Positions 21,589-37,965 of a stretch of DNA of 64,000 nt are shown piece by piece. The DNA comes from Parcubacteria group bacterium. Lineage in GTDB: Bacteria > Patescibacteriota > Minisyncoccia > Phycocordibacterales > Phycocordibacteraceae. Under the pieces are notes generated by a model, which did not search any database, was not told the origin of the DNA, and saw only the letters and a program-made list of their open reading frames with translations. Each line of letters opens with the position of its first letter. The first letter of the stretch is position 1. Both the position numbers and the translations under genes were made by a program. Location of the stretch: NCBI GenBank assembly GCA_028286525.1, contig JAQBRL010000016.1, positions 17,924 to 81,923 of the forward strand, given 5' to 3'.

Positions 21589-21652
21589 TAAAACATGCCG
21601 TAATGTAGCCTCACAATAGGCCCATAAGACCCCATCACGGTATAGTGAACTG

Positions 21653-23575
21653 ATGCGGTACCTTGAGGGACTCAACGAACGACAGAAGGAGGCGGTCCTC
21701 TCCACTGAAGGGCCGATTTCGGTCCTGGCCGGAGCAGGCTCGGGCAAGACCCGAGTGCTCACTACCCGCATTTTCCACCTCCTGCGGGAAGGAACGCCGC
21801 CAGAGAAGATACTGGCGGTCACCTTCACCAATAAGGCCGCCCGCGAGATGCGGGAACGCCTCGCGCTCCTGGTGGGGGACGGACCCTTGCCCTTGGTGGC
21901 CACCTTTCATGGGCTCGGAAGGGAACTCCTGCAGAGCTATGGGCGGGTCATCGGCGTCCCGCGCTATTTCAGCGTCTACGATCGGGATGATTCCGAACGC
22001 GCGATCAAGGACGCGCTCAAGGAGATGGATATCGACCCGAAAGAAGTGCCTCCGCGACAGATACTTTCACGCATTAGCAAAGCGAAAGGAGAAGGGATGA
22101 CCGCCCAGAGCTTCAAGGAGAAGCACGGAGGCGAAGGGTTCCGCTCGCGTATCGCGTCGGAAGCGTGGCTGAAGTACGATGCCACGCTCGAGAAGGAGAA
22201 GGCACTCGACTTTGACGACCTCATTTCCAAACCCGTGCACCTCTTCGAGGCGCATCCGGAAATGCGCGCGCTCGTGCAAGAACGATTCAGCCACATCCAT
22301 GTGGATGAGTATCAAGACACGAACGAACTGCAAGGACGTCTCGCGAACATGCTCGCCCACAAGCATCGCAATCTTTTCGTGGTGGGCGATATCGATCAGA
22401 CCATCTATACGTGGCGGGGGGCGACTATCGAGAACCTGCTTTCGTTCGATGAAACGTATCCGGAAGCGAAGACCATCGTGCTCGAGCATAACTATCGTTC
22501 GACGAAGACCATCGTCGCCGCGAGCAATGCGATCATCGAGAAGAATAAGAACCGGAAAGAGAAGCGTGCGGTGACGGATAATCCGGACGGCCACCCGATA
22601 CGATTGCACGTATCCGATACCGCCGAAGAAGAAGCGCGCTTCATCGCACGGCAGGCACGGCAGTTCATGCGGGAGGGGATGGTGCCGGAAGAGATCGCCG
22701 TGCTGTACCGTACCAATTTCCAATCACGCGTGCTCGAAGAGGCGTTTCTTGCGCAGGGCATACCGTACCGCCTTTTAGGTACGCGTTTTCTCGACCGCAA
22801 AGAAGTGAAGGATGTCATCGCGTGGGTCAGGCTCGCGCTTGAGCCCGCTCGCGAAAGCGACCGCGTGCGCGCCGTGCAAGCGCCCCCGCGCGGCATCGGA
22901 AAAGTAACGGTAGCGAAGATAGCCGCCGGAAAAACAGAAGGACTGCCGGCGGCCGTGCGCGCGAAAGTCGATGCATTCGAATCGCTCGTGCAAACGCTGC
23001 ACGAAGAAAGCAAGTCGGCCGCGCCTTCTGCATTCGTCAGGCGCGTCATCCAACTCTCGGGACTCGAGGACGCGCTGGCCAAGGGCGGAGAAGACGATCA
23101 GGAACGACTCGAGAATGCGAAGGAGCTCGCGACGCTCGCGAGCCGCTACGACCACGTGCCCGGAGAAGAGGGCATCGCCGCATTCCTTGCGGACACCGCA
23201 CTCGCCGGCGATCAAGACGAGCTCGACCGTCCCCAAACGAACGAGAAGAATAAAAAAGGCGTGACGCTCATGACCGTGCATGCCGCGAAGGGTCTCGAGT
23301 TCGATGCGGTCTTCGTGACCGGACTTGAAGAAGGCCTCTTCCCGCACGAAGGCATGAATCAGGAAGAGGAACGCGACGAGGAAGAGGAGCGCCGTCTTTT
23401 CTATGTCGCCATGACCCGCGCGAAGCACCACCTCGTGCTCACCATGGCGCGCGTCCGTCGTATATACGGAACGGATTATCTTTCGGAACCGTCCACCTTC
23501 CTGCACGATATCGACCCGGGACTCATGCAGGTCAATTATGGCGAAGAGGAGCACGAGGATATCATCCACATATAA
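21653..23575 (+). CDS. pcrA: ATP-dependent DNA helicase PcrA/UvrD
   Basis: 640 aa; Walker A AGAGSGKT, UvrD motifs (TFTNKAA, DEYQDTN, VGDIDQTIY, MTVHAAKGLEF). Confidence 0.9.
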   Translation: MRYLEGLNERQKEAVLSTEGPISVLAGAGSGKTRVLTTRIFHLLREGTPPEKILAVTFTNKAAREMRERLALLVGDGPLPLVATFHGLGRELLQSYGRVIGVPRYFSVYDRDDSERAIKDALKEMDIDPKEVPPRQILSRISKAKGEGMTAQSFKEKHGGEGFRSRIASEAWLKYDATLEKEKALDFDDLISKPVHLFEAHPEMRALVQERFSHIHVDEYQDTNELQGRLANMLAHKHRNLFVVGDIDQTIYTWRGATIENLLSFDETYPEAKTIVLEHNYRSTKTIVAASNAIIEKNKNRKEKRAVTDNPDGHPIRLHVSDTAEEEARFIARQARQFMREGMVPEEIAVLYRTNFQSRVLEEAFLAQGIPYRLLGTRFLDRKEVKDVIAWVRLALEPARESDRVRAVQAPPRGIGKVTVAKIAAGKTEGLPAAVRAKVDAFESLVQTLHEESKSAAPSAFVRRVIQLSGLEDALAKGGEDDQERLENAKELATLASRYDHVPGEEGIAAFLADTALAGDQDELDRPQTNEKNKKGVTLMTVHAAKGLEFDAVFVTGLEEGLFPHEGMNQEEERDEEEERRLFYVAMTRAKHHLVLTMARVRRIYGTDYLSEPSTFLHDIDPGLMQVNYGEEEHEDIIHI

Positions 23576-23579
23576 AAGT

Positions 23580-24356
23580 ATGCAGGCGAAACAAGCTCTC
23601 GGCCAGAACTTCCTCATGCACCAAGCCACCGCCGACCGCATCGCGGACGCCGCCGGCCTTCGCAAGGATTCGGTCGTGCTCGAGATAGGGCCCGGTACCG
23701 GCATGCTCACCCGTTCGCTTCTCGCTCGAGCAGGGAAGGTCATCGCAGTGGAAGCCGACAGGGAATTGATAGCGCCGCTGCGGGAAGCATTTGAAACCCC
23801 GCTTGGTACTGGCGCTCTTGAGATACGAGAAGGGGACATCCGCAGCTTCGATCTCGGGACGCTCCCCTCTGGATACGTAGTCGTAGCGAATATACCGTAT
23901 TACATAACCGGAGAGATCATTCGCACCCTTCTCACCGCACGAAACAAGGCCGCAGCAGTCACGCTACTCGTCCAGAAGGAGGTCGCGGAGCGCATCGTAC
24001 GCAGCCGGAAAGAGAGCCTGCTTTCGCTCTCGGTAAAAGCGTACGGAACGCCGAGCTACAAATTCACCGTGCCACGAGGGTCTTTTCGTCCCGCGCCGAA
24101 CGTGGATTCTGCCGTGCTCCATGTTGCGGATATACAGCCACCTTTCGAGAACGAGACTCTAGAAGCTCGGTTTTTCGAGGTTCTGCATGCGGGGTTCGCC
24201 CATAAGCGCAAGCGGCTCGCGAAGAATCTGGAAGCACTTGCGCCTGCGGAAATGATCGCGCGTGCGTTTTCAGAAACCGGGCTGGATGTGAATGCACGCG
24301 CGGAGGATATTCCGCTTTCTACCTGGAAACAGCTGGTGGGGATACTCGGGGGATAA
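23580..24356 (+). CDS. rsmA: 16S rRNA (adenine1518/1519-N6)-dimethyltransferase
   Basis: LGQNFL start motif, SAM-binding LEIGPGTG, NIPY motif; ORF track start 23538 overlaps pcrA so ATG 23580 preferred. Confidence 0.85.
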   Translation: MQAKQALGQNFLMHQATADRIADAAGLRKDSVVLEIGPGTGMLTRSLLARAGKVIAVEADRELIAPLREAFETPLGTGALEIREGDIRSFDLGTLPSGYVVVANIPYYITGEIIRTLLTARNKAAAVTLLVQKEVAERIVRSRKESLLSLSVKAYGTPSYKFTVPRGSFRPAPNVDSAVLHVADIQPPFENETLEARFFEVLHAGFAHKRKRLAKNLEALAPAEMIARAFSETGLDVNARAEDIPLSTWKQLVGILGG

Positions 24357-24379
24357 GCTCGGGATAGCGAGTGGAAAAA

Positions 24380-24396
24380 CTGTGCACAATGCACAG
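24380..24396. promoter_or_regulatory. 17-bp palindrome CTGTGCA-CAA-TGCACAG upstream of T4SS-like operon
   Basis: perfect 7-bp arms; about 60 nt upstream of GTG start at 24455. Confidence 0.3.
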
Positions 24397-24454
24397 CCGC
24401 ACTCATCAGTTACTCATGAAATAGCGCCTGCGTGCTACTATTTTTGTACGTACT

Positions 24455-25453
24455 GTGGCTTATTCTCATCGCACCACTCTCATCATCATCGCATCGACCG
24501 TTTCGGTTGCGCTCATGGTCGTCGCGGTCCTCACTTCGGGCCCTCTGCCCTTCCATCTGCAGAAAGTCGACGCCGCATCTACCCATGATCTGCTCGTTTC
24601 GTACGCCGCCAAGGACACGGATGGCGACGTTCTTCCCGACTGGGAAGAGGCTCTCTACGGGACGGACCCTAATAACCCGCACAGCGTAAGCGCCACGGTC
24701 ACCGACGGCCAGGCCGTCGCTCAAGGCCTCGTCAAGCCGAAATTCGCAAGCGCGACCACCACGCCGGTTAGCGTCGCAAGCATCCCGGGTACGGATTCAG
24801 GACCCCAGACCCTTACCGACCAGTTCGCGCGCGGTCTCTTCTCGCAATATCTTTCGAAACAGGACCCTAACAATCCACCCACCCCCGAAGCGATAGCGAC
24901 GTTCGTCGAGGGAGCGGTGAATGACTTCGTGAATTCGCAGCAGATCCCGGACGCGTACAATCGGGGGCAAGTGCAAGTCGTGGGCAGTGGCCCGGATGCA
25001 CTCTTGAGCTACGCCGCCAGCGCCGAGAATGTGTTCGCTGCACACACCGTCGCTACCGATAGAGGCGAGCTTGAGTACTATGCCGACGCGGTAGAGAAGA
25101 ACGACCTGACCGCACTCGCCCAAGTTAAGAAAATAGGTGCCGCGTATACCGCCATCGCCAAGGGCTACATCGCGGTCCCGGTACCGAAGGAAGCTGCAAC
25201 GCCGCATCTTGCGGTGGCGAACGCGCTTGCGCGACTTGGAAGCGACATTACTGATATGAGCACCATGCAGAGCGACCCGCTTCGCTCCTATCTCGGCCTC
25301 GCCAAGTATGAAATCGATGCTCCGGCTTTCGTACAAGCCATGACTTCGCTTGAGGGTGTCTATGCGAGCGAGCAGGTGGTGGTGCCTTCCGGTACCGGAG
25401 GCTCTTCCTTCTACAGCGCCATGGTGAGCGCCTCCACAGTTACAACGCCATGA
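24455..25453 (+). CDS. membrane-anchored/secreted hypothetical protein with DTDGD calcium-binding-like motif
   Basis: GTG start; N-terminal TM LIIIASTVSVALMVVAVL; DTDGDVLPDWEEALYGTDPNNP resembles TSP3/dockerin-type Ca site; first gene of tight operon. Confidence 0.45.
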   Translation: MAYSHRTTLIIIASTVSVALMVVAVLTSGPLPFHLQKVDAASTHDLLVSYAAKDTDGDVLPDWEEALYGTDPNNPHSVSATVTDGQAVAQGLVKPKFASATTTPVSVASIPGTDSGPQTLTDQFARGLFSQYLSKQDPNNPPTPEAIATFVEGAVNDFVNSQQIPDAYNRGQVQVVGSGPDALLSYAASAENVFAAHTVATDRGELEYYADAVEKNDLTALAQVKKIGAAYTAIAKGYIAVPVPKEAATPHLAVANALARLGSDITDMSTMQSDPLRSYLGLAKYEIDAPAFVQAMTSLEGVYASEQVVVPSGTGGSSFYSAMVSASTVTTP

Positions 25454-26988
25454 GTTGGTCCCGACCCATCGTTTCGTTGCTTCTCATAAGTATCTTCGCG
25501 ACGAGCGGCGTGATGATCCAGCCCCGAGCAGTCTACGCTCAACAAATCGTCCATGACCCCATAAGTCATGTGACGGGTTTGGCTGATCTCGCAAAAAATA
25601 CGATCACCTCGGCGAAAAGCATCATTACGGGAGCGGCGTCTGCAAAAATTCTCACGAATCCTATCTTCTATCGCATTGCGCAAGCTGCTATTCAATCCAT
25701 GGTGAAGAGTACGGTCAATTGGATAAACTCCGGCTTCCAAGGGTCGCCCGCGTACGCAACGAACCTTTCGGGTACCCTGCAGGACGCTGCGGATGTCGCA
25801 GCGAAGCAGTTCGTGGGGCAGCTCGCGACCCAGTCGGGGATTAAGTCTCCTTTCAGCGATAAGGTGTCGCAGACCATTCTCTCCACCCATTATCTTTCAA
25901 CCTCGCGAGATGGATTCGCGCTCCTGAATCCGTACACCTTGAACAAAGTGAGCTCGAATGATGCAGCGTTCCTGAGAGGGGATATCAGTCAGGGCGGATT
26001 CCAAGCATGGTTCGCGACCGTACTTAATCCGCAGAATAATCCTATCGGAGCAAGCAATCTTGCTCAAAATGAACTGAATAAGCGCGTAGCCTCCGCGGTA
26101 GGCCAAGTACACGAGGAACTGGGCTGGGGAAACGGATTCTTCTCGTTCCGCACCTGCGATAAGCCGGCACCCGCTTCGAGTGCGTCATGCCCAGCGGGCA
26201 CTATAGATACTGGCGATGGGTCAGGCTGCCAGGCAGGGTCTGGTGCTCCCGTGAGCTTAAGCCAGAATAGTTCATGCCTTTCAAGCAGTATTAAAACGCC
26301 CGGTTCGGTCATTGCAGGGTCCCTTAACCACACGCTCGGATTGGGAGCCGACTCACTGGTTCAAGCGAAAGATTTCGATGAAATAGTGAATGCACTCATG
26401 GGGCAGCTCTTGAATAATGTTCTTGGGAGTTCGGGTCTCGGCGGACTTTCAAAGGGATCGACCGCAACGGGCGGACGAGCCTATTTCAATCAACCAACGA
26501 GCAGTAATACGAGCGCGAGCGTATCGGCAGTAAGTACTTTTACGCAGCTGCTTGATCAGCAAACTACCGCGCTGCAGGAATACCTCACGAACTGGCAGAG
26601 TGTCGGCGCTGCTGCGAACGCTGCGAAGACCGCACTCACGGCGAGTACGTGCGTACCCGGGGCAGCGAATATCGTCACCACGCAAGTCCAGCCGGTCATT
26701 ACGCAAGCAGCCACCGCCGTCGGTACTGTGCCGAACGCCCTGAACGCCATCGATAAGATACGCTCGGCTGCGCTCGGAGCGGCCACTGCCGACACCAGCA
26801 CCCAGACCACAGTGCTCCAGCAAGCGTCCGCCGATTACGCTGACCTTCTCGCTTCGAGCGCCTTCCCGAGCCTGAACGATTTCACGAACGCCGCCGCGCA
26901 GAGTACGGACACCACCGGCACCGGCCTTTCTCCTTCCCTTCTCGACCAGATGAATCAACTCACCGCGCAGGCGAAGTGCGGCCATTAA
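25450..26988 (+). CDS. secreted hypothetical protein (Ala/Gln/Ser/Thr-rich)
   Basis: 512 aa; signal peptide MSWSRPIVSLLLISIFATSGVMIQPRAVYAQ; start overlaps previous stop. Confidence 0.45.
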   Translation: MSWSRPIVSLLLISIFATSGVMIQPRAVYAQQIVHDPISHVTGLADLAKNTITSAKSIITGAASAKILTNPIFYRIAQAAIQSMVKSTVNWINSGFQGSPAYATNLSGTLQDAADVAAKQFVGQLATQSGIKSPFSDKVSQTILSTHYLSTSRDGFALLNPYTLNKVSSNDAAFLRGDISQGGFQAWFATVLNPQNNPIGASNLAQNELNKRVASAVGQVHEELGWGNGFFSFRTCDKPAPASSASCPAGTIDTGDGSGCQAGSGAPVSLSQNSSCLSSSIKTPGSVIAGSLNHTLGLGADSLVQAKDFDEIVNALMGQLLNNVLGSSGLGGLSKGSTATGGRAYFNQPTSSNTSASVSAVSTFTQLLDQQTTALQEYLTNWQSVGAAANAAKTALTASTCVPGAANIVTTQVQPVITQAATAVGTVPNALNAIDKIRSAALGAATADTSTQTTVLQQASADYADLLASSAFPSLNDFTNAAAQSTDTTGTGLSPSLLDQMNQLTAQAKCGH

Positions 26989-26992
26989 ATCT

Positions 26993-29317
26993 ATGCGTAT
27001 AGCACTGCAGCACCTAGCGCTTCTCGGTCTGGGAATCCTGTTTTTATTCGCACCAGCCCCTGCGGTGCATGCACAGACGACCGCTCCGCCTGCGTCGGGA
27101 GGTTTCCCTGCACAATTCACCGATTCATCCGGAATAATCCATAAATTGGTAGCAGGCTCGCAGTACACGCAGACCCCCGGAACTCCACGGCAGTGCGCGA
27201 AATATACCGGCTTTGCGAATGATTACGGCTGCATAAATCCTGACGGGACGCTCGACCAATGCTTCGTCGGCCCGAACGCGATACCGAGCTGTACGACTCC
27301 GAAGACCGCAGATGGGGGCAGTACGACCTCGTCCCAAGTCGCTAATACGAGCCTTACTACAAATACTGATGCTAGCGGTAAAACCACCGCAGATGCTCAG
27401 CCCGTCGATAAGAGTTGCAGCATCAATACGCTTGATATCTGTTTGGCTAACGCAGGCACCTGGATCATAAAGCAGATCGCACTCCTGTTCCTTTTCATCG
27501 CTAGTTTCTTTGCAGGACTTTCAGGGTTCCTTTTCAATTGGATCGTCTACATAACGGTCTTCCAGTTCGGGAATCTCATCGGTAATAATCCCGGCATGCT
27601 CGCCGCGTGGGGAGTGCTTCGCGACATCGGCAATATCCTTCTTCTGTTCGGATTCATCTTCATGGGCATCAGCACTATTCTTAATCTGCCGGGCAATGAG
27701 TTCACGGCGAAGCGCGCGCTTCCCGCACTCATCATATTCGCGATATTGATGAACTTCAGCCTCTTCGCAGCCGAAGCGGTCATCGACACCAGCAACGCTA
27801 TCGGAACGACACTCTACAAGCAGGCGAGTCAGGGACTCTGCACGTCCGGGGAGAGTCAAATCGACTGCGCAACCAACAAAGGCATTGCCGGCTCTATATT
27901 CAAGGTTTCCGGTATTTCAGCCATATTCAATAAAGACGCTGCCGCGCAAATCCCGGGAAATGATTTCGGAGCGGTGATCGAGATACTCGGGCTCGCCATA
28001 TTCGCCGCAGTGACCGCATTCGTCTTCTTCGCGGCGCTTTTCCTTTTCATAACGCGTGCCGTCGTGCTCGCTTTTCTTATGGCGGTCTCGCCGATCGGAT
28101 TCGCCGGCATGGCGGTCCCGCCTCTGCACGAATACGCTTCTATGTGGTGGCAGCAACTGTTGAAGCAATCATTTTTCGCTCCTATCTATATCCTGCTGAT
28201 CCTCATCAGTATTAAATTCATGGAGGGTATAACGACCGCGCTCAATACCGCCTCAGGAGGAGGCGCTACGCTTCACAACCTTGCGGACGCTTTCAGCGTT
28301 ACAGGAGCTTCGAACGTGAGCATGGTGGTGGACTTCATGCTCATCACCGGCTTCATGCTGGGCTCGCTTATCATCGCGAAGCAGATGGGTGCAGCGGGAG
28401 CTGACCGCGCGACGAAATTCGCAGGTGCTGCAACATTCGGCACAACCGCATTCATAGGACGTCGTACGGTGGGCCGTGCTATGTATAGCGGCGCAAGCGC
28501 TCTGCGCGGTACGAAATTCGGCCAAACGAATACGGTAGGGAAGTTCCTTGTGAATAGTTTTGATAAAGGATCTAAGAGTAATTTTGATGCGGGACGTGCA
28601 ATTTTGGGTGGAATTGCAAAATCTCAGCATCTTGATATAGGAACTGCACAAAAGGGTGGCTATGCAGGAATCGTGCATGCCGAAGAAGAGAAGCGTAAGG
28701 AATTCGCGAAGAAACTCACGGCAACGAAGGAAGATAAGAAGGTGAAGGAGGGCCTTCAGACCACGAAGAATCTTCTCCAGGGCGAGTTACAGGATGCGGA
28801 GGCAGAACTCGCGGCGCAAGTGGCAGTGAATGAAGCTGCACTGAAACCTACTCGCACTGCGCTGGCTCAAAAATACACGCAGCTCCAACAGGCTCGTGCA
28901 TCAGGCAACGCTGCCCTCGCAGCAACTCTCGAGAAGGAGTTCGAGAATGACACGAAAGCATACGAACTTGAAAAGGAGGTGGCCGATAAGAAACTTGACC
29001 CTGCCAAGGCGCGAATGGCCGAAGCCAAGAAGTATATGTCTCAAACCGACGGTCAGCTTAAGCAAAATGGCCAGGAGCCTCAGAGACGTTACGCAGAAAG
29101 TCTCGACAATAATATCCGCAATCCTCTTGATTGGTGGAGCTACGCTGGTGGTGTGGGCAATGATGCCGATCACCATGCAGCGACTGAGATTCTTAAGAAT
29201 CTAGACAAGAGCGAGAACGAAAGAGTTGTTGACGCTATCAGCGCGCTTGGTGGAAAATTGGGTGGAGGTGGAGGTGGCGCTCCACCCGCTGGCGGGGGAG
29301 ACGCGGCAGCCCATTAA
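26993..29317 (+). CDS. TrbL/VirB6-like polytopic membrane protein with coiled-coil and Gly-rich C-terminal tail
   Basis: 774 aa; signal peptide, Cys-containing ectodomain, about 6 TM helices (aa 160-470), Lys/Glu coiled coil, GGGGGG tail; architecture typical of VirB6/TrbL family. Confidence 0.5.
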   Translation: MRIALQHLALLGLGILFLFAPAPAVHAQTTAPPASGGFPAQFTDSSGIIHKLVAGSQYTQTPGTPRQCAKYTGFANDYGCINPDGTLDQCFVGPNAIPSCTTPKTADGGSTTSSQVANTSLTTNTDASGKTTADAQPVDKSCSINTLDICLANAGTWIIKQIALLFLFIASFFAGLSGFLFNWIVYITVFQFGNLIGNNPGMLAAWGVLRDIGNILLLFGFIFMGISTILNLPGNEFTAKRALPALIIFAILMNFSLFAAEAVIDTSNAIGTTLYKQASQGLCTSGESQIDCATNKGIAGSIFKVSGISAIFNKDAAAQIPGNDFGAVIEILGLAIFAAVTAFVFFAALFLFITRAVVLAFLMAVSPIGFAGMAVPPLHEYASMWWQQLLKQSFFAPIYILLILISIKFMEGITTALNTASGGGATLHNLADAFSVTGASNVSMVVDFMLITGFMLGSLIIAKQMGAAGADRATKFAGAATFGTTAFIGRRTVGRAMYSGASALRGTKFGQTNTVGKFLVNSFDKGSKSNFDAGRAILGGIAKSQHLDIGTAQKGGYAGIVHAEEEKRKEFAKKLTATKEDKKVKEGLQTTKNLLQGELQDAEAELAAQVAVNEAALKPTRTALAQKYTQLQQARASGNAALAATLEKEFENDTKAYELEKEVADKKLDPAKARMAEAKKYMSQTDGQLKQNGQEPQRRYAESLDNNIRNPLDWWSYAGGVGNDADHHAATEILKNLDKSENERVVDAISALGGKLGGGGGGAPPAGGGDAAAH

Positions 29318-29320
29318 GGT

Positions 29321-30181
29321 ATGAGTGAGATCGAACAGAAGGGAATGGGTGTAGACCAAGCAATAGCGACTCTCGTGGATGATCTTCCGCGACCCGTTCG
29401 AGAATTCGTTCTTGGTCCTGAACGCGATCGCATTTCGCTTTCTCTCACGCAAAAATACAGCCTGCATGCCGATCAGGCGGCCGCATTCGAACAAACGTAT
29501 CTTTTCCTCCTTCTCGGAGTCAGTTCTCCTGAAGAATTCGCGCAAGCGCTCAAGAACGCCGGAATAAGCGAGGAAACGGTTCTGGGTCTCACCAACGATA
29601 TAAATGAGCAGGTGTTCAAGCCGTTGCGCGCGAAGATCCAAGAAAGCACAGGTACGCCTCCCGACTCGTCTGCTCCAGCAATCCCCGCACCTGTCATCCC
29701 TTCTACGAGCGGTGGTGCTTCCGCCGTATCCAAAACCCCGATTCCTGTAGCACCACCGCTACCTCCACCTCCAATACCTCGGCCGATCAGTGCGCCTCCC
29801 GCCATGCCTATCGCCCGTCCTGTTCCCCCTCCCCTGCCGCCACCTCCGCCTGCCGTACCTTTATATGATACGGAGCCCGCAATGCGCACTATGGCGACCG
29901 ATATGCAGGCAGCGAAAGAGCATCGCGTTCCAGAACCGTTGTTCTCTCGGCCTGCGCCCGCAGCTCCGCTAGCACCTGTAGTTGCTGCGCCACTACCTCC
30001 TCCTGTCGAACCACCCGCACCGCACCGCACCATGTCATCTATCGTGCCGCCGCCGCTTCCGCATGTATACGAACCGCCCGCAGCATCTAGAGCGCCTCTC
30101 GCTCCGCCACCGCCGAATCTTCCGGGCGCACCTACCGCGCCTCCATACAGCGTCGACCCGTATCGCGAACCGATGGAATAA
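29321..30181 (+). CDS. proline-rich hypothetical protein
   Basis: 286 aa; soluble N-domain then long PPLPPPP-type tract. Confidence 0.45.
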   Translation: MSEIEQKGMGVDQAIATLVDDLPRPVREFVLGPERDRISLSLTQKYSLHADQAAAFEQTYLFLLLGVSSPEEFAQALKNAGISEETVLGLTNDINEQVFKPLRAKIQESTGTPPDSSAPAIPAPVIPSTSGGASAVSKTPIPVAPPLPPPPIPRPISAPPAMPIARPVPPPLPPPPPAVPLYDTEPAMRTMATDMQAAKEHRVPEPLFSRPAPAAPLAPVVAAPLPPPVEPPAPHRTMSSIVPPPLPHVYEPPAASRAPLAPPPPNLPGAPTAPPYSVDPYREPME

Positions 30182-30213
30182 AACGACGCGCTCGTCGGTT
30201 ATACTGGTACGTA

Positions 30214-30633
30214 ATGGAGTACCAGGTACCGCAGTTCATCGAGGTCGAAGATAAGATATTCGGTCCGTTCACGCTCAAGCAGTTCATCTATCTCGCCGGT
30301 GGGGGAGGGCTTACGGCCATCATCATCCTGTACGTGCGGCCGCTCGTGCTTACCTTCGTACTTATCGCTCCGGTTCTCGCGCTTACCGGCGCGCTGGCGT
30401 TCTATCGGATGAACAACAAGTCGTTCATCGAGCTGCTCGAAGCGGGTTTTAACTACTACACCAAGGGCAGGCTCTATCTCTGGAAGAAGGAGGAAGCCGT
30501 CGAGATGCCGGTGGCCGCAGCGCCCGTCGTGGAAACACGCCAGAAACTAGGCCTTTCCCGTGGCCGGCTCCACGACTTAGCATGGTCGCTCGATATCAAG
30601 GACCAGAAAGCGGGAGAGGAATCCCAACCGTAA
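30214..30633 (+). CDS. VirB3/PrgI-like small two-helix membrane protein
   Basis: 139 aa; two adjacent TM helices (GGGGLTAIIILYV..LIAPVLALTGALAFY); position directly upstream of VirB4-like genes matches conserved VirB3-VirB4 synteny. Confidence 0.45.
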   Translation: MEYQVPQFIEVEDKIFGPFTLKQFIYLAGGGGLTAIIILYVRPLVLTFVLIAPVLALTGALAFYRMNNKSFIELLEAGFNYYTKGRLYLWKKEEAVEMPVAAAPVVETRQKLGLSRGRLHDLAWSLDIKDQKAGEESQP

Positions 30634-30636
30634 TAT

Positions 30637-31284
30637 ATGGCAGTCCCGCAACCCACCCAGGCATTCGTGCCCGTCAAAGAAGTCCGCAACGGCATCGTCA
30701 TCCTCAAGGAGGACGGATATCGCGGCATCATGATGTGCTCCGCCATGAACTTCGCGCTTAAATCGGAAGATGAGCAGACGGCCATCATCCGAGGGTTCCA
30801 GTCCTTCCTGAATACGCTCGATTTCTCGGTCGAGGTGGTCGTGCACTCCCGGAAAATGGACATTCGTCCGTACCTGGCACTCCTCGAGGAGCGGCTCGAT
30901 GCGCAACAGAGCGAGCTCATGCGTATCCAGCTGCGCGAATACATACAATTCATCAAAGGATTCATGGACTCCACCGAAATAATGACCAAGCTCTTCTACA
31001 CAGTGGTGCCGTACAGCCCTGCACTCGGTCTCAAAGTCGCTCAGTCGTTCCACGTGCCCGGTACGAAAAAAGCAACGGCGTCCGAGCAAGGGGATAATTT
31101 CGAGGAGGACCGCATTCAGCTCGAGCAGCGCATGGCGCTCGTCTCCGCAGGTCTTTCTTCCGCAGGCATCAGAGCGGTCGCGCTTTCGACCGAAGAGATA
31201 ATCGAGCTTCTGTACCGGTCGTTCAATATCGGCCAGCTTGAAAGCCCCATCCATCTGGACGGCGGGGCTCCGTCACGCACCTAA
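30637..31284 (+). CDS. VirB4-like protein, N-terminal domain fragment
   Basis: 215 aa; N-terminus PVKEVRNGIVILKEDGYRGIMMCSAMNFALKSEDEQTAIIRGFQSFLNTL resembles the start of Gram-positive VirB4 (PrgJ/TcpF-type) proteins; in the same frame as next ORF, separated by one TAA. Confidence 0.5.
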   Translation: MAVPQPTQAFVPVKEVRNGIVILKEDGYRGIMMCSAMNFALKSEDEQTAIIRGFQSFLNTLDFSVEVVVHSRKMDIRPYLALLEERLDAQQSELMRIQLREYIQFIKGFMDSTEIMTKLFYTVVPYSPALGLKVAQSFHVPGTKKATASEQGDNFEEDRIQLEQRMALVSAGLSSAGIRAVALSTEEIIELLYRSFNIGQLESPIHLDGGAPSRT

Positions 31285-31287
31285 TCT

Positions 31288-33111
31288 ATGGCTCTTCTCG
31301 ACTTCCTCTCTCGTAATAAAAAGGAGACCACGGCCATTACGCCGGTGCTTCCGAAAGATATCTATGCGCAGGGCGCGCTCGATCTTGCCGACGCCATAGC
31401 GCCCGCGGCGCTCAAGGTCAGCTCCAAGGAAATAGAGCTCGGGGAGAAATTCTCGCGTTCCTTCTACACTATTTCCTATCCGCGCTTCCTGAGCGATGGG
31501 TGGTTCATGGAGATCATCAACCTTTCGCGCGAACTCGATGTCGGTCTCTTCGTGCATCCCATCGAGACGGGGTCGGCGCTGCGGGGTTTCCAGAAGAAAG
31601 TGGCGGAAGTGCAGAGCCAGATAAGCGAACGGGAAGAGAAGGGGCTCGTGCGCGACCCGCTCTTAGATACCGCGTATCAGGACCTCGAGACCTTGCGCGA
31701 CAATCTCCAGCAGGCGCAGGAGAAGCTCTTCGATGTGGGTCTCTATCTCACGCTCTACGGCAATACGAAAGAGGAGCTCGATAAGATAGAAGGGGAGGTG
31801 CGCGGCATCCTCGACGCGAAGCTGGTATACACGAAGCCCGCGCTCTTCCAGCAGGAGCAGGGCTTCCGCTCCACGCTTCCGCTCGCGCTCGATGAGCTCT
31901 CGGTCAATTCAAAGCTCAATTCCGGGCCGCTTTCCTCCATTTTCCCCTTCGTCTCCTTCGACCTCACGAGCGATCGCGGCATCCTCTTCGGCATCAACCG
32001 CCACAACTCCTCGCTTATCCTCTTCGATCGCTTCTCGCTCGAGAACTACAACTCGGTGGTCTTCGCCAAATCCGGTTCCGGCAAATCCTATGCGGTGAAG
32101 CTCGAGATACTGCGCTCCTTGATGTTCGATACGGATGTCATCGTTATCGATCCGGAGCAGGAGTACTCCTATCTCGCCGAAGCGACCGGCGGCCGCACCT
32201 TCAATATTTCGCTTTCGAGCGAGCACCACATCAATCCGTTCGATCTCCCGCCGGTGAAGGATGATGAGGAACCAGGCGATATCCTGCGCTCCAACATCAT
32301 CAACCTCGTCGGGCTGTTCCGGCTCATGCTCGGCGGCCTCACGCCGGAGGAGGACGCCATCGTCGACCGCGCCATCACGGAAACGTACGCCCTGAAGGAC
32401 ATCACGGGCGACAGCGATTTCACGGGAGTCGAGCCGCCGCTCCTCTCCGACTTCGAGCAGGTCCTTTCCGGCATGGAAGGGAGCGAATCCATCGTGACGC
32501 GTCTATCGAAATACACGCATGGCACCTGGGCCGGATTCATCAATCGTCCGACGAACATCGATATCAATAAGCAGTTCATCGTGTTTTCCGTACGCGATAT
32601 GGAGGACGAGCTCAAACCCATCGCGATGTACATCATCACGCACTACATCTGGAACGCCGTGCGTCACGAGCTCAAGAAACGCCTGCTCGTCATCGACGAA
32701 GCGTGGTGGATGATGAAGTCGGAGGATACGGCCTCCTTCCTCTACAGCATGGCCAAGCGCGGTCGTAAGTATTTCCTCGGCCTCGCCACCATCACGCAGG
32801 ACGTGGAAGACTTCCTCAGCAGTCCGTACGGTCGTCCTATCCTCACCAACTCGAGCATCCAGCTGCTGCTCAAGCAATCGCCGACCACCATCAACGTCCT
32901 CAAGGATACCTTCAACCTTACGGACCAAGAAAAATTCCTCTTGCTCGAGTCGGGAGTAGGCGAAGGGCTTTTCTTCGCGGGACTGAAGCACGTCGCCATC
33001 AAGATAGTGGCGTCCTACACCGAAGACCAGATCATCACCTCGGACCCGTCGCAGCTGCTGGCCATCAAACGCGAGAAGGATCGGCTGGAAAGCACTGGCA
33101 CCAGTGCCTAG
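31288..33111 (+). CDS. VirB4/TraC-like conjugal-transfer-type ATPase (C-terminal portion)
   Basis: 607 aa; Walker A AKSGSGKS, Walker B LLVIDEAWWM, GLATITQ motif; AAA-like DUF87-type fold typical of VirB4. Confidence 0.75.
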   Translation: MALLDFLSRNKKETTAITPVLPKDIYAQGALDLADAIAPAALKVSSKEIELGEKFSRSFYTISYPRFLSDGWFMEIINLSRELDVGLFVHPIETGSALRGFQKKVAEVQSQISEREEKGLVRDPLLDTAYQDLETLRDNLQQAQEKLFDVGLYLTLYGNTKEELDKIEGEVRGILDAKLVYTKPALFQQEQGFRSTLPLALDELSVNSKLNSGPLSSIFPFVSFDLTSDRGILFGINRHNSSLILFDRFSLENYNSVVFAKSGSGKSYAVKLEILRSLMFDTDVIVIDPEQEYSYLAEATGGRTFNISLSSEHHINPFDLPPVKDDEEPGDILRSNIINLVGLFRLMLGGLTPEEDAIVDRAITETYALKDITGDSDFTGVEPPLLSDFEQVLSGMEGSESIVTRLSKYTHGTWAGFINRPTNIDINKQFIVFSVRDMEDELKPIAMYIITHYIWNAVRHELKKRLLVIDEAWWMMKSEDTASFLYSMAKRGRKYFLGLATITQDVEDFLSSPYGRPILTNSSIQLLLKQSPTTINVLKDTFNLTDQEKFLLLESGVGEGLFFAGLKHVAIKIVASYTEDQIITSDPSQLLAIKREKDRLESTGTSA

Positions 33112-33114
33112 CGC

Positions 33115-33606
33115 ATGGCTATGGCGGCTTCTTCCTCCACCGCGCCGGTACCGTATCGAGTGAACAACGTGCAGGAGTTCCTCTTGAAAGGGTCTGCCTG
33201 CGTTCTCTACGTCATCCAGTTGATCCTGATGCTGACCTTGGTGGGGGAAGTCGGGACCGAGGTGATCGGACTCGTGGGAGATATCCTTTATATCGTGTGG
33301 TTCTGGCTCCTGGGAGTCAATTACTTCGGAGGTAATTCCCATAGCAAGCTCATGACGCTCGTGACGAATTCCGTGCTGGAAACCGTTCCATTCGTGAACG
33401 GCATCTATCCTGGCTTCTGCGTAGAAGTCTGGCGACTCGTTGCCATCATGAAGAAGGAGGATGAGGAAAAGCACGCGCTGCGCCAGAAAAAAATAGATAA
33501 AGCGGAAGCGGCGCAGGCTCAGCAACGCGCACGTGCAGTAGCGATACGGGCCCAAAGAATCGCGGCGAATGATGCCGAGGCAGCGGCAGAGGCGCAGGCA
33601 GCCTGA
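33115..33606 (+). CDS. small membrane protein with two TM helices and Ala/Gln coiled-coil tail
   Basis: 163 aa; hydrophobic hairpin LYVIQLILMLTLVG / ILYIVWFWLLGV; possible VirB2/VirB3-like. Confidence 0.4.
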   Translation: MAMAASSSTAPVPYRVNNVQEFLLKGSACVLYVIQLILMLTLVGEVGTEVIGLVGDILYIVWFWLLGVNYFGGNSHSKLMTLVTNSVLETVPFVNGIYPGFCVEVWRLVAIMKKEDEEKHALRQKKIDKAEAAQAQQRARAVAIRAQRIAANDAEAAAEAQAA

Positions 33607-33636
33607 ATACCCAGTACCCTCCGCTTCCCACGAGCG

Positions 33637-34632
33637 ATGGGGCGGTATACTAAAACCATGTATCGCGTGGTGTTCCTAGCCGCTCTCTTCTCGCTCGCGG
33701 GCATTCTTCCTGCGCATGCGCAATTCGCTTCGAGTGATCCGCTTACGGTGACGGTATCGCCCGATACTCCGCGTCCCTACGAGACGGTGACCGTAACGCC
33801 CAGCAGCACGCTTATCGATCTATCTGCCGCTAAGATAACGGTTTCGGTCAACGGAAGGGTGGTCGAGAGCGGTGGAGTGCAAAGCGTGCCTGTCACCGTC
33901 GCAGGACCCGGTGGGACCACCTCGATAACCGTGACTGCGGTCGCTTCCGGACAAACGTATACCCAAACGATAACGCTGCACCCCGCTGATGTGGCGCTCG
34001 TGGTCGAGCCGGTCTCGACCACGCATCCGTTCTATTTGGGAGGCGCCCTTACCGCGCCGGTAGGCGTAGTACGGGTCATTGCCATACCGGATCTGCGCAC
34101 CAGCACGAACGCCCGGCTGAGCTCCTCCGCACTCGTGTACAACTGGAAGTGGGGCGACAAGGTGCTCACTGACCAGTCCGGCATCGGTCGGTCCATCCTC
34201 ACCGCAACGGCGCCGGTGCAGTACCGTGACGCGCAGATAACCTGTACGGTCACCAGCCAAGACGGTTCCCTCGTCGCCCAAGCATCCACCGTCATCAGCC
34301 CCGCAAGCGCAATCGTCCGAGTATATCCTGTGGATCCGTTGCGGGGACCGGATTTCGACCACGCGCTTCCGGCGAGCTTTTCCATGAGTACAGAGGAGCA
34401 GGCGTTCCGTGCCGTCGCGTACTTCTTCGGCAGCACACCATCGCTCGCGTGGGCAGTGAATGGCGCGTCGGCAAGCAACGACCAGGATGTGACGGTACGC
34501 ACGACCGGCACCGGGCAGGGGACCGCATCGCTCTCTCTTACCGCTTCAAGCGCTGACACGAGCCAGAGCGCTTCGTCCGAGCTTTCTATCAATTTCGGAG
34601 CGAAGAAGGCTTCTAATATATTCGGCTTCTAA
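33637..34632 (+). CDS. secreted hypothetical protein (beta-rich)
   Basis: 331 aa; signal peptide ending AHAQ; Thr/Val-rich Ig-like composition. Confidence 0.45.
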   Translation: MGRYTKTMYRVVFLAALFSLAGILPAHAQFASSDPLTVTVSPDTPRPYETVTVTPSSTLIDLSAAKITVSVNGRVVESGGVQSVPVTVAGPGGTTSITVTAVASGQTYTQTITLHPADVALVVEPVSTTHPFYLGGALTAPVGVVRVIAIPDLRTSTNARLSSSALVYNWKWGDKVLTDQSGIGRSILTATAPVQYRDAQITCTVTSQDGSLVAQASTVISPASAIVRVYPVDPLRGPDFDHALPASFSMSTEEQAFRAVAYFFGSTPSLAWAVNGASASNDQDVTVRTTGTGQGTASLSLTASSADTSQSASSELSINFGAKKASNIFGF

Positions 34633-34633
34633 T

Positions 34634-35533
34634 ATGCGTACGTATTTCTTCATCCTTGCCGCTCTCATCTTCCTTCCGCTCCTTACGCACGCACAGGGAA
34701 CGGATTTCATTCCGCTGACGAGCTTACCGGGCCTCGATAAGGTATCGAGCGCGAATTCGCTTGCACCCTTCCTCTCCGAAATCTACAAGATCTGCATCGG
34801 ACTCGCGGCAGTGCTCGCGGTACTGCAGATCATGCGCGCGGGCGTCATGTACATGGGAGGCGACAGCATTACCGAGAAGAAAGACGCTCGGGCGCTCATC
34901 GGCACCTCGCTTGCAGGCTTACTCCTCGTGCTTTCACCGGTCATCGTGTTCTCCATAATCAATCCGAACATCCTGAAGCTTGATATCAGTGCAGGAAACT
35001 TGCAGAGCTCGACGGCAGGGGGCGGAGCTAATGCTGGCTCGTCCGCTTCGCCTGGCTCGACTGCGTCTACGCAATCACCTAATCCAGCGGTTACTGCAGC
35101 CATCTGCAACGCAGCCACCATAAAGAAAGCGGTGGTGCTCGCTTCCGGCCAAACCTGCGAGCAAAAATTCGGTACCGGCTACGCGAAGATCGACCCCCAG
35201 TGCTGCTCGGATTACTCATCCGGCGCGAGTTGTTGCGGCTACGATCCTAAGAACGACCAGACGGTCGCGCCGGGGCCTAATTTAAGCGCTACGGCGAGCT
35301 ACTCCATTTCCTTCCAAGACAAGGATGCGGTCGGGAAAGCGTGCGTCACTACGGATGATAGGGGTAATTACGATAGCCTCTCGAGCTGCCAGAGCGCCTT
35401 CGCGAGCGAAACGCAAACCTTGCGGAGCAGGGGATCCATATTCGCCGTGGGCAAGATCTGCAGCGAGGCAAGCCAGCACACGCCGACACCCGTAGATATA
35501 TGGAATAAGATCCGGCCGCTTCCTGCTTGCTAA
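34634..35533 (+). CDS. VirB2/TrbC-like pilin candidate with Cys-rich C-terminal domain
   Basis: signal peptide (LLTHAQG), then two about 20-aa hydrophobic helices separated by a short charged loop, then about 150 aa with 10 Cys. Confidence 0.35.
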   Translation: MRTYFFILAALIFLPLLTHAQGTDFIPLTSLPGLDKVSSANSLAPFLSEIYKICIGLAAVLAVLQIMRAGVMYMGGDSITEKKDARALIGTSLAGLLLVLSPVIVFSIINPNILKLDISAGNLQSSTAGGGANAGSSASPGSTASTQSPNPAVTAAICNAATIKKAVVLASGQTCEQKFGTGYAKIDPQCCSDYSSGASCCGYDPKNDQTVAPGPNLSATASYSISFQDKDAVGKACVTTDDRGNYDSLSSCQSAFASETQTLRSRGSIFAVGKICSEASQHTPTPVDIWNKIRPLPAC

Positions 35534-35537
35534 TACC

Positions 35538-36776
35538 ATGAAACGCATCCTCCTTATCGCTGCAGCAGTCCTCGTCCTGATCGGTATCGGCGTGGGGATC
35601 TATTTCTATTTCTTCGCGCGCACCGCCACGCTTACGGTGGGGCAGGCCGGTAGCTTGCCGAGCGCCGGTACGGGGGCCATCGATACGTCAGCCGGCACTC
35701 CCTCCACGCAATCGCTCGGGGTTGCGGTGCCGGGAGCGGGTACGGACGTGGCACCTCGATTAGTGCGCATCACCGATAGACCCGTAGCGCTCGGGAGCGT
35801 CGCGGTATATGTACCGCGCCAGAAAATAGGAGCGTCCACCGCAAGCACGACCGCCACCTATACCGACCCCGAGGTGCGCGTGGAGTATATCGAACGCGAG
35901 AGCGGGAATATCTATGCGTATCAAGCGCACGCACGCACGCTGGTACGTCTTTCGAACAAAACGCTTCCGGGCGTCCAGGAAGCGAGCTGGCTCTCCGACG
36001 GATCGCTTGCCTATGTGCGGTTCCTCGAGAAGAACGGCACCACCGAACGTATCGATACGTATGCGCTCCCAGCCACTACCACGGCCGGCTATTTCCTCCA
36101 GCAGGATCTCTCCCAGGTACTGGTGCGCGCTACCAGCACGCTCGTGACGCTGCTTTCAACGAGCGGGGGTAGCTCCGCATCCATATCGACTCCTTCGGGA
36201 ACGGGGCTGCATACGCTTTTCACCACAGCTCTCTCTTCCATTCGCCTCGCGTTCTCGGGCGCTAACTATGTCGTCACCACCAAAGGCTCGGCGACCACGG
36301 ATGGCTACTCGTTCGTCGTCGACGGGAAGACAGGAGCCTTTACGCGCGCGCTCGGACCGCTACAAGGCCTCTCGACCCTTGCGAGTCCTTCGGGTAAGTA
36401 CCTCCTGTACAGCTATCTGGCTAACGGAAAGCTTGCGCTTGCGTTCCTCGACCTCTCCACGCATGTGGCAACACGGCTTCCGCTTTCAACGCTTCCCGAG
36501 AAATGCGTATGGATGACCGACGATAGTGCGGTCTACTGCGGAGTGCCCACCACGTTCTCAGGGACGCTTCCGGACGACTGGTATCAAGGCGCGGTCTCGT
36601 TCAGTGATCGGATCTGGAAAATAGATCTTGCGGGACGGGTCGCCACGCTCGTCATCGATCCGAAGCAGGCGGGGAACGTAGACGTTGATGCCGTCGGGCT
36701 CTCGCTCGATTCCGCGAACGATATTCTCCTGTTCACGAACAAGCGCGATAGTCTCCTCTACGCCTACGACCTCTAG
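35538..36776 (+). CDS. membrane-anchored protein with beta-propeller-like repeats
   Basis: 412 aa; N-terminal TM LLIAAAVLVLIGIGVGIYFYFF; TolB-like repeat composition; last gene of operon. Confidence 0.4.
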   Translation: MKRILLIAAAVLVLIGIGVGIYFYFFARTATLTVGQAGSLPSAGTGAIDTSAGTPSTQSLGVAVPGAGTDVAPRLVRITDRPVALGSVAVYVPRQKIGASTASTTATYTDPEVRVEYIERESGNIYAYQAHARTLVRLSNKTLPGVQEASWLSDGSLAYVRFLEKNGTTERIDTYALPATTTAGYFLQQDLSQVLVRATSTLVTLLSTSGGSSASISTPSGTGLHTLFTTALSSIRLAFSGANYVVTTKGSATTDGYSFVVDGKTGAFTRALGPLQGLSTLASPSGKYLLYSYLANGKLALAFLDLSTHVATRLPLSTLPEKCVWMTDDSAVYCGVPTTFSGTLPDDWYQGAVSFSDRIWKIDLAGRVATLVIDPKQAGNVDVDAVGLSLDSANDILLFTNKRDSLLYAYDL

Positions 36777-36777
36777 G

Positions 36778-36901
36778 AGAACAAGTTAAAATCTTTATCT
36801 GCGTTGTTATGGGTCCCAGCAGGTTTCTCCACCGTACTCAGAGTACGTCTACGAAACCTGCTTCCCCATGCCTAGCAGCTAAAAGATTTTTCCCTTGTTC
36901 T
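36778..36901. other. long nested imperfect hairpin between convergent genes (complex terminator or structured RNA)
   Basis: paired arms AGAACAAG/CTTGTTCT, AAAATCTTT/AAAGATTTT, AGCAGGTTTC/GAAACCTGCT and inner GTACTC-A-GAGTAC; about 120 nt, AT-richer than flanks. Confidence 0.35.
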
Positions 36902-37634
36902 ACAAACTAACTGGAGCGATTTTTGTCTTTCCGCGACGCACGACGAATTCTTGTACGAGAGCGACGATGTTGCTCGTAATGAAATAGAGCGCGATGGCGC
37001 CGGAAGCGTACGCGACGATACCGATGATGATGGGGAGCATGAAGCGCGCTTGGAGCGCCATGGTGCGCGCGAAGTCCGCACCGGGCGAGCCGCCTACTTC
37101 AGCGGAAGCCGGAGGAACCGGAATGGCGTACCACGCCTGCGCGAGCTGGGTAAGTCCCGCGAGTATGGCGAGCGGGATATTGTGCGCGGTAATGATCAGA
37201 AGGCCGAGGAACAGGGGAGAGACGAGCGCGGGAGCGTGCACGAACGAATACAGTAGCGAGGGATCGATCTTCGGGAGAGCTTCCGTACGGAATACCCAAT
37301 ACAAACCGATGATGATGGGGAGCTGGATGAAGATGGTCAGGAATCCTGCTGCCGGATGCACGTCGTATTTTTTATAGAGCGCCATCATTTCGCTCATTTG
37401 CTTCTCCTTATCCTCCTTATACGTCTCTCGAATCGCTTTCATCTCGGGATCCATCGCCTTCATCGCCTTTTGCGCTCGCGCAGCACTCATGGAAAGCGGC
37501 CAAAGAATGAGCTTAACGATGAGGGTCGCACCGATGATGGCGAGTCCGATATCCCCTCCTGGTATAACGGACACGAGGAACACGAGAAGGTTGTAGATCG
37601 GCACATACAGAATGGTGTGGAAGAAATTTCCCAT
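36900..37634 (-). CDS. yidC: membrane protein insertase YidC (short form)
   Basis: 244 aa; five TM helices, conserved YidC/Oxa1 core; downstream of rnpA. Confidence 0.85.
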   Translation of the reverse strand: MGNFFHTILYVPIYNLLVFLVSVIPGGDIGLAIIGATLIVKLILWPLSMSAARAQKAMKAMDPEMKAIRETYKEDKEKQMSEMMALYKKYDVHPAAGFLTIFIQLPIIIGLYWVFRTEALPKIDPSLLYSFVHAPALVSPLFLGLLIITAHNIPLAILAGLTQLAQAWYAIPVPPASAEVGGSPGADFARTMALQARFMLPIIIGIVAYASGAIALYFITSNIVALVQEFVVRRGKTKIAPVSL

Positions 37635-37645
37635 GTCGCTATACC

Positions 37646-37963
37646 TTATACCTTCGGCAGGCTTGTGAGAAGGTCACCGAGCTCGCGCGCCAGGGTTCGA
37701 TAGGGAAGGGCAAGGCTTCCTGCGCGCGCATACATCACGAACGAACGCCCGGAGAGCACGTGCGGAGACGCTACGGCGAGCATGCGGCGCTTCAGGAGAT
37801 GCCGGTCCACCGCTCGTTTGGCGGTTTTCTTTGAAACCACCGCTGCAGCACGGCCCTCCACGCTCGGGGCTACCGTAACGGAAAAATGCGCCGATAGGGC
37901 GCGTTTTCCTGCTATGACCGGGCCGAACGTCGCCCGGGTGAGGCGCTTCGGACGAGGGAGCAT
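37646..37963 (-). CDS. rnpA: RNase P protein component
   Basis: 105 aa MLPRPKRLTRATF...VVSKKTAKRAVDRHLLKRR; ATG lies 2 nt downstream of the rpmH TAG stop (hand-annotated; ORF track merges it into a longer shadow frame). Confidence 0.8.
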   Translation of the reverse strand: MLPRPKRLTRATFGPVIAGKRALSAHFSVTVAPSVEGRAAAVVSKKTAKRAVDRHLLKRRMLAVASPHVLSGRSFVMYARAGSLALPYRTLARELGDLLTSLPKV

Positions 37964-37965
37964 GG

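Follow-up and report, generated by a model that had tools for sequence, protein, structure and literature searches.

In a 64-kb window of a metagenome-assembled genome (MAG) from the Parcubacteria group (class Paceibacteria), i.e., the whole stretch of contig JAQBRL010000016.1 presented above, we found that a tightly packed cluster of 11 co-directional open reading frames (ORFs) at 24455-36776 (+ strand) is very probably the host-encoded, chromosomal type IV secretion system (T4SS) already published for Patescibacteria. This assignment follows from the parts list of the cluster, from its fixation in the genomes of related species, and from the lack of conjugation genes in the window. As the cluster matches the systems reported by Quinonero-Coronel (2025), Wang (2023), and McLean (2020), the system itself is already known, and possibly only the details of its accessory proteins are new. 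Counting the + strand ORFs of at least 130 amino acids (aa), the cluster comprises the following genes, hereafter referred to as g1 to g11:

24455..25453, + strand: g1, 332 aa, one N-terminal transmembrane (TM) segment and a TSP3-type calcium-binding motif at residues 54-75 (Pfam)
25450..26988, + strand: g2, 512 aa, secreted helical protein with a signal peptide, directly upstream of VirB6
26993..29317, + strand: g3, 774 aa, extended VirB6/TrbL-like polytopic protein (Pfam TrbL, TM prediction)
29321..30181, + strand: g4, 286 aa, Pro-rich protein with neither TM segment nor signal peptide, predicted cytoplasmic (26-orthologue alignment)
30214..30633, + strand: g5, 139 aa, PrgI/VirB3-like protein with two TM segments (Pfam PrgI)
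30637..31284, + strand: g6, 215 aa, TrsD-like protein homologous to the VirB4 N-terminal domain (NCBIfam)
31288..33111, + strand: g7, 607 aa, VirB4 ATPase of the monoderm (MPF_FATA/CD1110) type (NCBIfam, Pfam, PDB)
33115..33606, + strand: g8, 163 aa, small polytopic membrane protein, directly after VirB4
33637..34632, + strand: g9, 331 aa, secreted protein with immunoglobulin (Ig)-like/cadherin-like beta-sandwich domains (Pfam Cadherin-like)
34634..35533, + strand: g10, VirB2-like T4SS pilin (Pfam matches of orthologues)
35538..36776, + strand: g11, N-terminal TM anchor, disordered linker, and extracytoplasmic seven-bladed beta-propeller, TolB/WD40-like (AlphaFold2)

An earlier reading of this DNA, made without database searches (hereafter referred to as the sequence-only reading), had counted 12 genes; both the ORF listing and the locus tags of the same MAG give 11, with JWO84_323 as gene 2 and JWO84_332 as gene 11.

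The ATPase g7 scored 373.2 bits against the NCBIfam model conju_CD1110 (cut-off 325), with further matches to NF045975, the VirB4 model of the Mycoplasma integrated conjugative element (ICE), to TraC, TrbE, and VirB4_CagE, and to Pfam P-loop_TraG (86.6 bits). Its closest solved structure was the Thermoanaerobacter VirB4 (4AG5, 9.9e-44), and TrwK of R388 was matched at 1e-6. No FtsK, VirD4, or coupling-protein model was present among the Pfam and NCBIfam matches, and the HerA central domain DUF87 passed (34.9 bits) as a weak secondary match to the shared P-loop region. The grouping is therefore with VirB4 families rather than with FtsK, HerA, or TraG, as the sequence-only reading had proposed; of the two motifs that it quoted, DEAW is found in Walker B (VIDEAW), while the supposed GKSGSGKS of Walker A reads AKSGSGKS. 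The preceding g6, previously taken for a putative VirB4 N-domain, indeed matched VirB4_plasma (positions 104-214, E = 4.3e-8), CD1110 (positions 4-101, 1e-5), and TrsD (2.2e-3), all below the cut-offs, and its homologue in one related locus (L082) carries PF26593 TraC-like. Because g6 is an ORF of its own in all 79 related loci containing it, the split of VirB4 is ancestral and not a frameshift.

The remaining core components were recovered as well. The protein g5, described earlier as a two-TM VirB3/PrgI-like protein, passed the Pfam PrgI gathering score (35.2 bits vs 27), and PrgI lies directly upstream of TrsD-VirB4 in 76 of 80 related loci. The large g3 has a signal peptide, about six TM segments, and a coiled-coil region, and its C-terminal part is rich in Gly; its TrbL match (residues 230-444) passed the gathering score marginally (26.6 bits vs 25.9), which upholds the proposed TrbL/VirB6 identity, and among 46 orthologues 5 matched TrbL and 1 matched TrbL_4. 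In g10, a signal peptide is followed by a two-helix hairpin (residues ~45-110) and a variable C-terminal extension, first Ser/Ala-rich and then Cys-rich. Its own TrbC match (E = 2.9e-3) fell short of the gathering score; of 46 orthologues, however, 40 matched PF18895 T4SS_pilin (best 3e-11) and 18 matched TrbC. The orthologues range in length from 134 to 580 aa, and the g10 profile had no match among PDB sequences. Two pilins had been predicted, at 33115-33606 and 34634-35533, and only the second is borne out by these orthologue matches. The first, g8, was rejected as a second pilin, having no signal peptide and no match to a pilin or any other family in 42 positional orthologues. If both termini of g10 face outwards as in VirB2, the C-terminal extension would decorate the surface of the filament.

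We further compared the genomic surroundings of VirB4 relatives, which were confirmed by tblastn with one genome per species. The loci compared were those of the best 80 of 527 relatives; these 80 had 73-89% identity and were all from MAGs, and according to the record titles the named lineages are Patescibacteria, Paceibacteria, or Kaiserbacteria, several records being titled 'bacterium' only. Across related loci in dozens of Paceibacteria species, the genes are again arranged as ksgA-[11 genes]-yidC-rnpA-dnaA-dnaN. Identity of VirB4 was strongly correlated with that of DnaA (57 loci; Pearson 0.96, Spearman 0.87), and the median identities at the same loci were 75% for VirB4, 55% for DnaA, and 39% for DnaN, with VirB4 the most conserved of the neighbourhood. 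Co-divergence with DnaA and this higher conservation fit a gene that belongs to the core, is inherited vertically, and is strongly constrained. For a secretion ATPase, the constraint on VirB4 is unusually strong.

Mobility genes were sought with a Pfam scan that covered ~50 of the ~60 window ORFs and returned housekeeping, type IV pilus, or competence genes. No relaxase, type IV coupling protein (T4CP; VirD4/TcpA), VirB11-type ATPase, or integrase was detected in these ~50 ORFs. Two T2SSE ATPases (5183-6970 and 46342-48318) were considered as VirB11 and rejected, both being long PilB-type proteins with MshEN domains. We found no flanking direct or att-like repeats and no tRNA target for integration, and the only intergenic inverted repeat of note is a terminator-like hairpin. 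The GC content is flat, at 0.545-0.596 in the cluster and 0.535-0.618 in the whole window. VirD4, relaxase, VirB11, integrase, an oriT-like repeat, and a compositional shift had all been reported as absent, in agreement with these results. The absence of VirB11 is, however, no peculiarity, being normal for monoderm (MPF_FATA) systems, and that of a coupling protein holds for this 64-kb window only, VirD4-like genes having been reported elsewhere in most Patescibacteria genomes (PMC12102498).

These observations make it extremely improbable that the cluster is a decayed ICE, i.e., what is left of an ICE or plasmid after the loss of its relaxase, T4CP, and integrase. The VirB4 type is that of monoderm conjugative elements (CD1110), which suggests an ultimately conjugative ancestry (PMC12102498). 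Against a remnant of this kind, however, position and gene order are constant in dozens of species, VirB4 co-diverges with DnaA under stronger constraint, and none of the 11 tightly coupled ORFs is disrupted. The locus likewise shows no att-like repeats, no integrase, no tRNA target, and no shift in GC. Synteny, co-divergence, and intactness effectively refute a decayed ICE, and the earlier view of a host-encoded apparatus rather than a conjugative element is sustained by the synteny, the VirB4-DnaA co-variation, and the lack of a mobile context.

The flanks and non-coding features of the cluster are as follows:

23538-24356: ksgA, upstream flank (identified from its sequence and the sequence-only reading, not by a hidden Markov model (HMM) scan)
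24357..24454, + strand: intergenic region from the ksgA stop to the first ORF, the only upstream gap of more than 32 nucleotides (nt)
36818-36862: hairpin with 22-nt arms and a 1-nt loop, in the gap where g11 and yidC converge (inverted-repeat search)
36900-37634, - strand: yidC, convergent downstream flank (Pfam)
38341-39735: dnaA, downstream of the cluster (Pfam)
39962-41062: dnaN, downstream of the cluster (Pfam)

The gene rnpA was likewise confirmed by Pfam downstream of the cluster, which is ~1.5 kb away from dnaA-dnaN; the placement between ksgA and yidC near the dnaA region was thus correctly recognised before. The range then assigned to the cluster (24380-36901) does contain it, but overshoots into intergenic DNA at both ends, the earliest possible start of the first ORF being GTG 24455. 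The gaps between consecutive ORFs are -4, 4, 3, 32, 3, 3, 3, 30, 1, and 4 nt, so that the description of overlaps or 1-5 nt gaps applies to most junctions and fails for two of ~30 nt. Most junctions have the form stop-N1-4-ATG, which suggests translational coupling or initiation independent of a Shine-Dalgarno sequence. In none of the 20-nt stretches preceding the 11 starts (24435-36776) is a Shine-Dalgarno-like purine run visible. The region 24357..24454 is presumably the promoter region of the cluster; a scan for the sigma-70 consensus found no site there, and promoter and terminator consensus scans of 23400-38400 gave no more matches than shuffled controls. Between 36776 and the yidC stop (36900), nothing credible was found except the hairpin 36818-36862, which was missed by the simple terminator scan and is probably a bidirectional terminator at the end of the operon. 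The ORF of rnpA (37646-38340, - strand, 187 aa) exceeds the called gene (105 aa; related locus L081:5432-5898), and rpmH (L34, 48 aa) lies between rnpA and dnaA, giving the classic rpmH-rnpA-yidC origin arrangement.

Six ORFs have no T4SS assignment (g1, g2, g4, g8, g9, and g11), including four products secreted or anchored outside, one cytoplasmic Pro-rich protein, and one small polytopic protein. Signal peptide and TM prediction agree with the earlier count of four secreted or anchored proteins of unassigned role (g1, g2, g9, and g11), and 5 of the 11 cluster products are extracytoplasmic by signal peptide or N-terminal anchor. A strong divergence from described T4SSs had also been proposed; this applies to the accessory proteins but not to the VirB4 core. 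In g1, the Pfam TSP3_bac match (E = 3.8e-4) is below the gathering score, and the only match of a profile of its orthologues (present in 30 loci; 30 orthologues) among PDB sequences was the calcium-binding repeat of a biofilm surface protein (7c7u). Homologues of g2 matched PF13605 DUF4141 in 15 of 73 cases (best 2.4e-8). Genes of DUF4141 adjoin traJ (VirB6) and traG of Bacteroides conjugative transposons in B. thetaiotaomicron gene lists (PMC10434189), and g2, directly upstream of VirB6, occupies a similar position. The AlphaFold2 model of g2 (predicted local distance difference test (pLDDT) 70) has a confident C-terminal helical bundle; a Foldseek search with the model against the PDB returned nothing at E < 0.1, and no specific fold match was obtained. 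We considered g2 as a VirB5-like pilus-tip protein, with which the model is compatible in fold, and rejected this candidate as neither Foldseek nor other evidence pointed to VirB5.

The protein g4 had no Pfam or NCBIfam match. In its family, the N-domain of ~110 aa is conserved, the Pro-rich linker differs greatly in length, and the extreme C-terminus bears an invariant DPYRE(P)xx. Several members also have the motif RTMAxD(M/I)xA(L/M)K, and some proteins of the g8 family (P0298, P0328, P0349, and P0364) have a DPYRE-like peptide in their tails. The secreted g9, present in 72 of 80 loci, scored 28.3 bits against Pfam Cadherin-like (gathering score 24.2), and its orthologue profile matched only Ig-like domains in the PDB, including phage T4 Hoc (3shs, 9e-6). 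For g11, the AlphaFold2 model is of high quality (pLDDT 88.2, predicted template modelling score 0.81) and an invariant Cys pair (C323 and C334) is present; Foldseek returned only generic beta-propellers, TolB among them (profile vs TolB, E = 2e-3), and the fold is too generic for a function to be assigned from it. Genes for a LysM-M23 peptidase (20330-21226, - strand) and VanY are located 3-6 kb upstream of the cluster. In one Paceibacteria sub-clade (L013-L035, e.g., L020:1-9400, L023, L034, and L019), a 13-kb segment vanY-sodA-M23-uvrD-ksgA-g1-g2-VirB6-g4 (window 18119-30181) is missing at the site, and PrgI-TrsD-VirB4-...-yidC-dnaA comes after comEC with one or two small ORFs between. This absence indicates that the cluster consists of two separable modules.

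From this parts list, we infer how the apparatus may work. Docked on PrgI and VirB6, the TrsD-like protein and VirB4 would drive the system, pulling the Sec-inserted VirB2-like pilin from the membrane and polymerising it into a surface filament or conduit. The variable Cys-rich C-terminal domain of the pilin, the Ig-like protein, and the beta-propeller could then contact the wall or the host cell surface, or help the structure to pass through the wall. Such an apparatus would serve epibiotic interaction, namely contact and the transfer of macromolecules other than conjugative DNA, and not self-transfer.

A more specific role as a translocator of protein effectors or toxins, exporting proteins into or onto the host bacterium either by contact or in two steps via Sec as in Bordetella Ptl, is possible, although we lean against it. 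Export of this kind was suggested by Wang et al. because coupling and relaxase proteins are missing (PMC10633639), and McLean et al. likened the Saccharibacteria locus to ptx/ptl; Ptl and Brucella VirB function without a coupling protein (PMC12102498), and the 5 extracytoplasmic products of the present cluster would be in keeping with it. In contrast, Pfam and NCBIfam revealed no enzymatic or toxin domain that would mark a product of the cluster as a candidate effector, and the 'secreted array' of Saccharibacteria has since been reread as VirB2-like pilins (PMC12102498).

The genes surrounding the cluster bear on another proposal, that the T4SS is a DNA-uptake machine that imports host or environmental DNA or nucleotides, as Helicobacter ComB or archaeal Ced do, and hands DNA to ComEC. 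To our knowledge, ComB-type systems are likewise without coupling protein, VirB11, and relaxase. The window also contains comEC (16668-18143), recJ, a comM-like gene (925-2514), and type IV pilus genes, and in the sub-clade described above comEC precedes PrgI-TrsD-VirB4, separated from it by one or two small ORFs. Import of DNA or other macromolecules is moreover favoured by the authors of PMC12102498. However, these same genes already provide a canonical type IV pilus and ComEC uptake route (with ComM and RecJ), and the Ced models were far from their cut-offs (CedB 36.6 vs 700 bits, CedD 20 vs 600 bits). According to the passage of PMC12857230 that summarises PMC10633639, competence in Southlakia relies on type IV pili, and cells with comEC deleted lose competence yet still grow, whereas the T4SS is essential. 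DNA uptake is weakened as an explanation by this dispensability of comEC, and we regard it as decidedly unlikely.

Several points weigh against assigning the cluster to the Patescibacteria T4SS with a role in epibiotic interaction. The absence of a T4CP and relaxase covers the 64-kb window only. The putative placement of VirB4 in the Patescibacteria clade draws on scores against HMM families and on how its close relatives are classified, and the VirB6 assignment of g3 is marginal by score. Sequence searches of the 11 ORFs gave no match to a VirB8-like (NTF2 fold) or VirB1-like (cell-wall hydrolase) component. Functional evidence comes from the saccharibacterium Southlakia and would apply to Paceibacteria by analogy. 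We also know of no case in which pilus formation by a monoderm T4SS has been visualised.

Among the side observations, the chief candidate novelty is the tail of g8, which is possibly new. This charged C-terminal tail, predicted to be cytoplasmic, ends ...RIAANDAEAAAEAQAA and resembles an ssrA tag. The g8 family comprises at least 225 representative clusters, and in the best 150 of them 69 end in -AA, of which 36 end in -EAA, vs 0 of 240 with -AA in control families. The motif ANDN begins 12-16 residues from the C-terminus in 32 of the 38 members having it, and the tail consensus AANDN-x3-4-EE(Y)xEAA-COOH has the same layout as the Escherichia coli ssrA tag AANDENYALAA (PMC7652416). One member in the same T4SS context (related locus L082:6001-6546) ends AAANDNNFAEEFSEAA. 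We tentatively raise the idea, which we hold to be rather doubtful, that the tail is a genomically encoded copy of a tag of the transfer-messenger RNA (tmRNA)/ssrA type and serves as a real degron or docking peptide gating T4SS assembly or activity. If true, the T4SS would be gated by ssrA-tag proteolysis (ClpXP, FtsH, or Lon), an undescribed control layer of an essential host-interaction machine. A search for the lineage's tmRNA, whose tag could be compared with the g8 tail, gave no hit in the window and none in 60 related loci, and no Patescibacteria tmRNA tag sequences were found in the literature; no report of ssrA-tag gating of a T4SS was met, with no literature search aimed at this point. 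The g8 gene is absent from some lineages. Where it is lacking between VirB4 and the Ig-like protein, the VirB4 ORFs are 640-712 aa long (L041, L043, L047, L049, L053, L055, L057, and others) with a Pro/Ala-rich disordered C-terminal extension of 40-100 aa.

Elsewhere in the window, the competence and type IV pilus set spans 925-2514, 5183-11967, 14497-18143, 46342-48318, and 59946-62201. It includes a ComM-like Mg-chelatase ATPase, PilB and PilC plus three downstream ORFs, RecJ and ComEC, a second PilB-like ATPase, and a PilN-like gene between ORFs with no assignment. At the left end, a YcaO-domain protein (2515-4035, - strand) is located beside a TrmB-family regulator (4422-5198, + strand), both unrelated to the T4SS.

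Few envelope machines are conserved in the ultra-small, host-dependent Patescibacteria, and the T4SS, which is essential for epibiotic growth in the one species tested, is among them. The window represents one more instance among thousands catalogued and therefore opens no new question alone; its value lies in a well-resolved Paceibacteria example with a full 11-gene parts list, a very strong constraint on VirB4, and a two-module layout. In addition, the short conserved tail motifs could guide experiments on regulation and subunit docking.

Comparison with known systems places the cluster closest to the published Patescibacteria loci. Quinonero-Coronel et al. (2025, Microb Genom) detected VirB4 in 2,417 of 3,035 Patescibacteria genomes, as a monophyletic clade nested in MPF_FATA, with TrsD, PrgI, VirB6, and VirB2-like genes near virB4, relaxase rare, and, in Paceibacteria, dnaA, dnaN, rnpA, ksgA, and rpmH as typical neighbours (PMC12102498). 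The present cluster shares with that survey the MPF_FATA VirB4, a separate TrsD-like ORF, PrgI/VirB3, VirB6, the VirB2-like pilin, the lack of a relaxase, and the neighbours dnaA, dnaN, rnpA, and ksgA as in Paceibacteria. Nothing essential differs, apart from one pilin gene here instead of an array, and our analysis adds descriptions of genes left grey there, namely the beta-propeller, Ig-like, and DUF4141-related proteins, g4, and g8. McLean et al. (2020) had reported VirB4, VirB6, and VirB2 homologues across Saccharibacteria and other lineages of the candidate phyla radiation, and in a 2025 review the system already ranks as a new, established type of T4SS.

Wang et al. (2023, Cell) demonstrated by transposon sequencing that epibiotic growth of Southlakia epibionticum requires its T4SS genes, those for the pilins among them, and could recognize neither a coupling protein nor a relaxase (PMC10633639). 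The Southlakia cluster (SEML1_0006-0019) has the same order VirB6-x-PrgI-TrsD-like-VirB4 and PF18895 pilins, and here too neither a relaxase nor a coupling protein is recognizable in the cluster. Particular to Southlakia are six pilins in an array, a VirB8-like protein of the NTF2-like kind, and genes for a peptidase and a lysozyme downstream, whereas the cluster in this Paceibacteria genome, compared with Southlakia of the Saccharimonadia, has one pilin, no recognised VirB8 or VirB1, and different extracytoplasmic accessories.

With the Gram-positive conjugative T4SSs (MPF_FATA: pCF10 Prg, pIP501 Tra, pGO1 Trs, and CTn2 CD1110), the cluster shares the CD1110-level VirB4, PrgI, a TrsD-like ORF, a VirB6-like protein, and the absence of VirB11 and of the outer-membrane core VirB7, VirB9, and VirB10, none of which was matched in the cluster ORFs (Pfam, NCBIfam). 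Unlike these systems, it is chromosomal, origin-proximal, and vertically inherited, is without relaxase, T4CP, recognised VirB1 hydrolase, and LPXTG adhesin, and possesses a VirB2-like pilin that they do not have. Neither Helicobacter pylori ComB nor Bordetella Ptl needs a relaxase to function; Ptl in addition dispenses with a coupling protein and ComB with VirB11, which indicates that a reduced T4SS set can be functional. These two are diderm systems with VirB7, VirB9, and VirB10, and their affinity to the cluster is limited to the VirB4, VirB3, VirB6, and VirB2 families.

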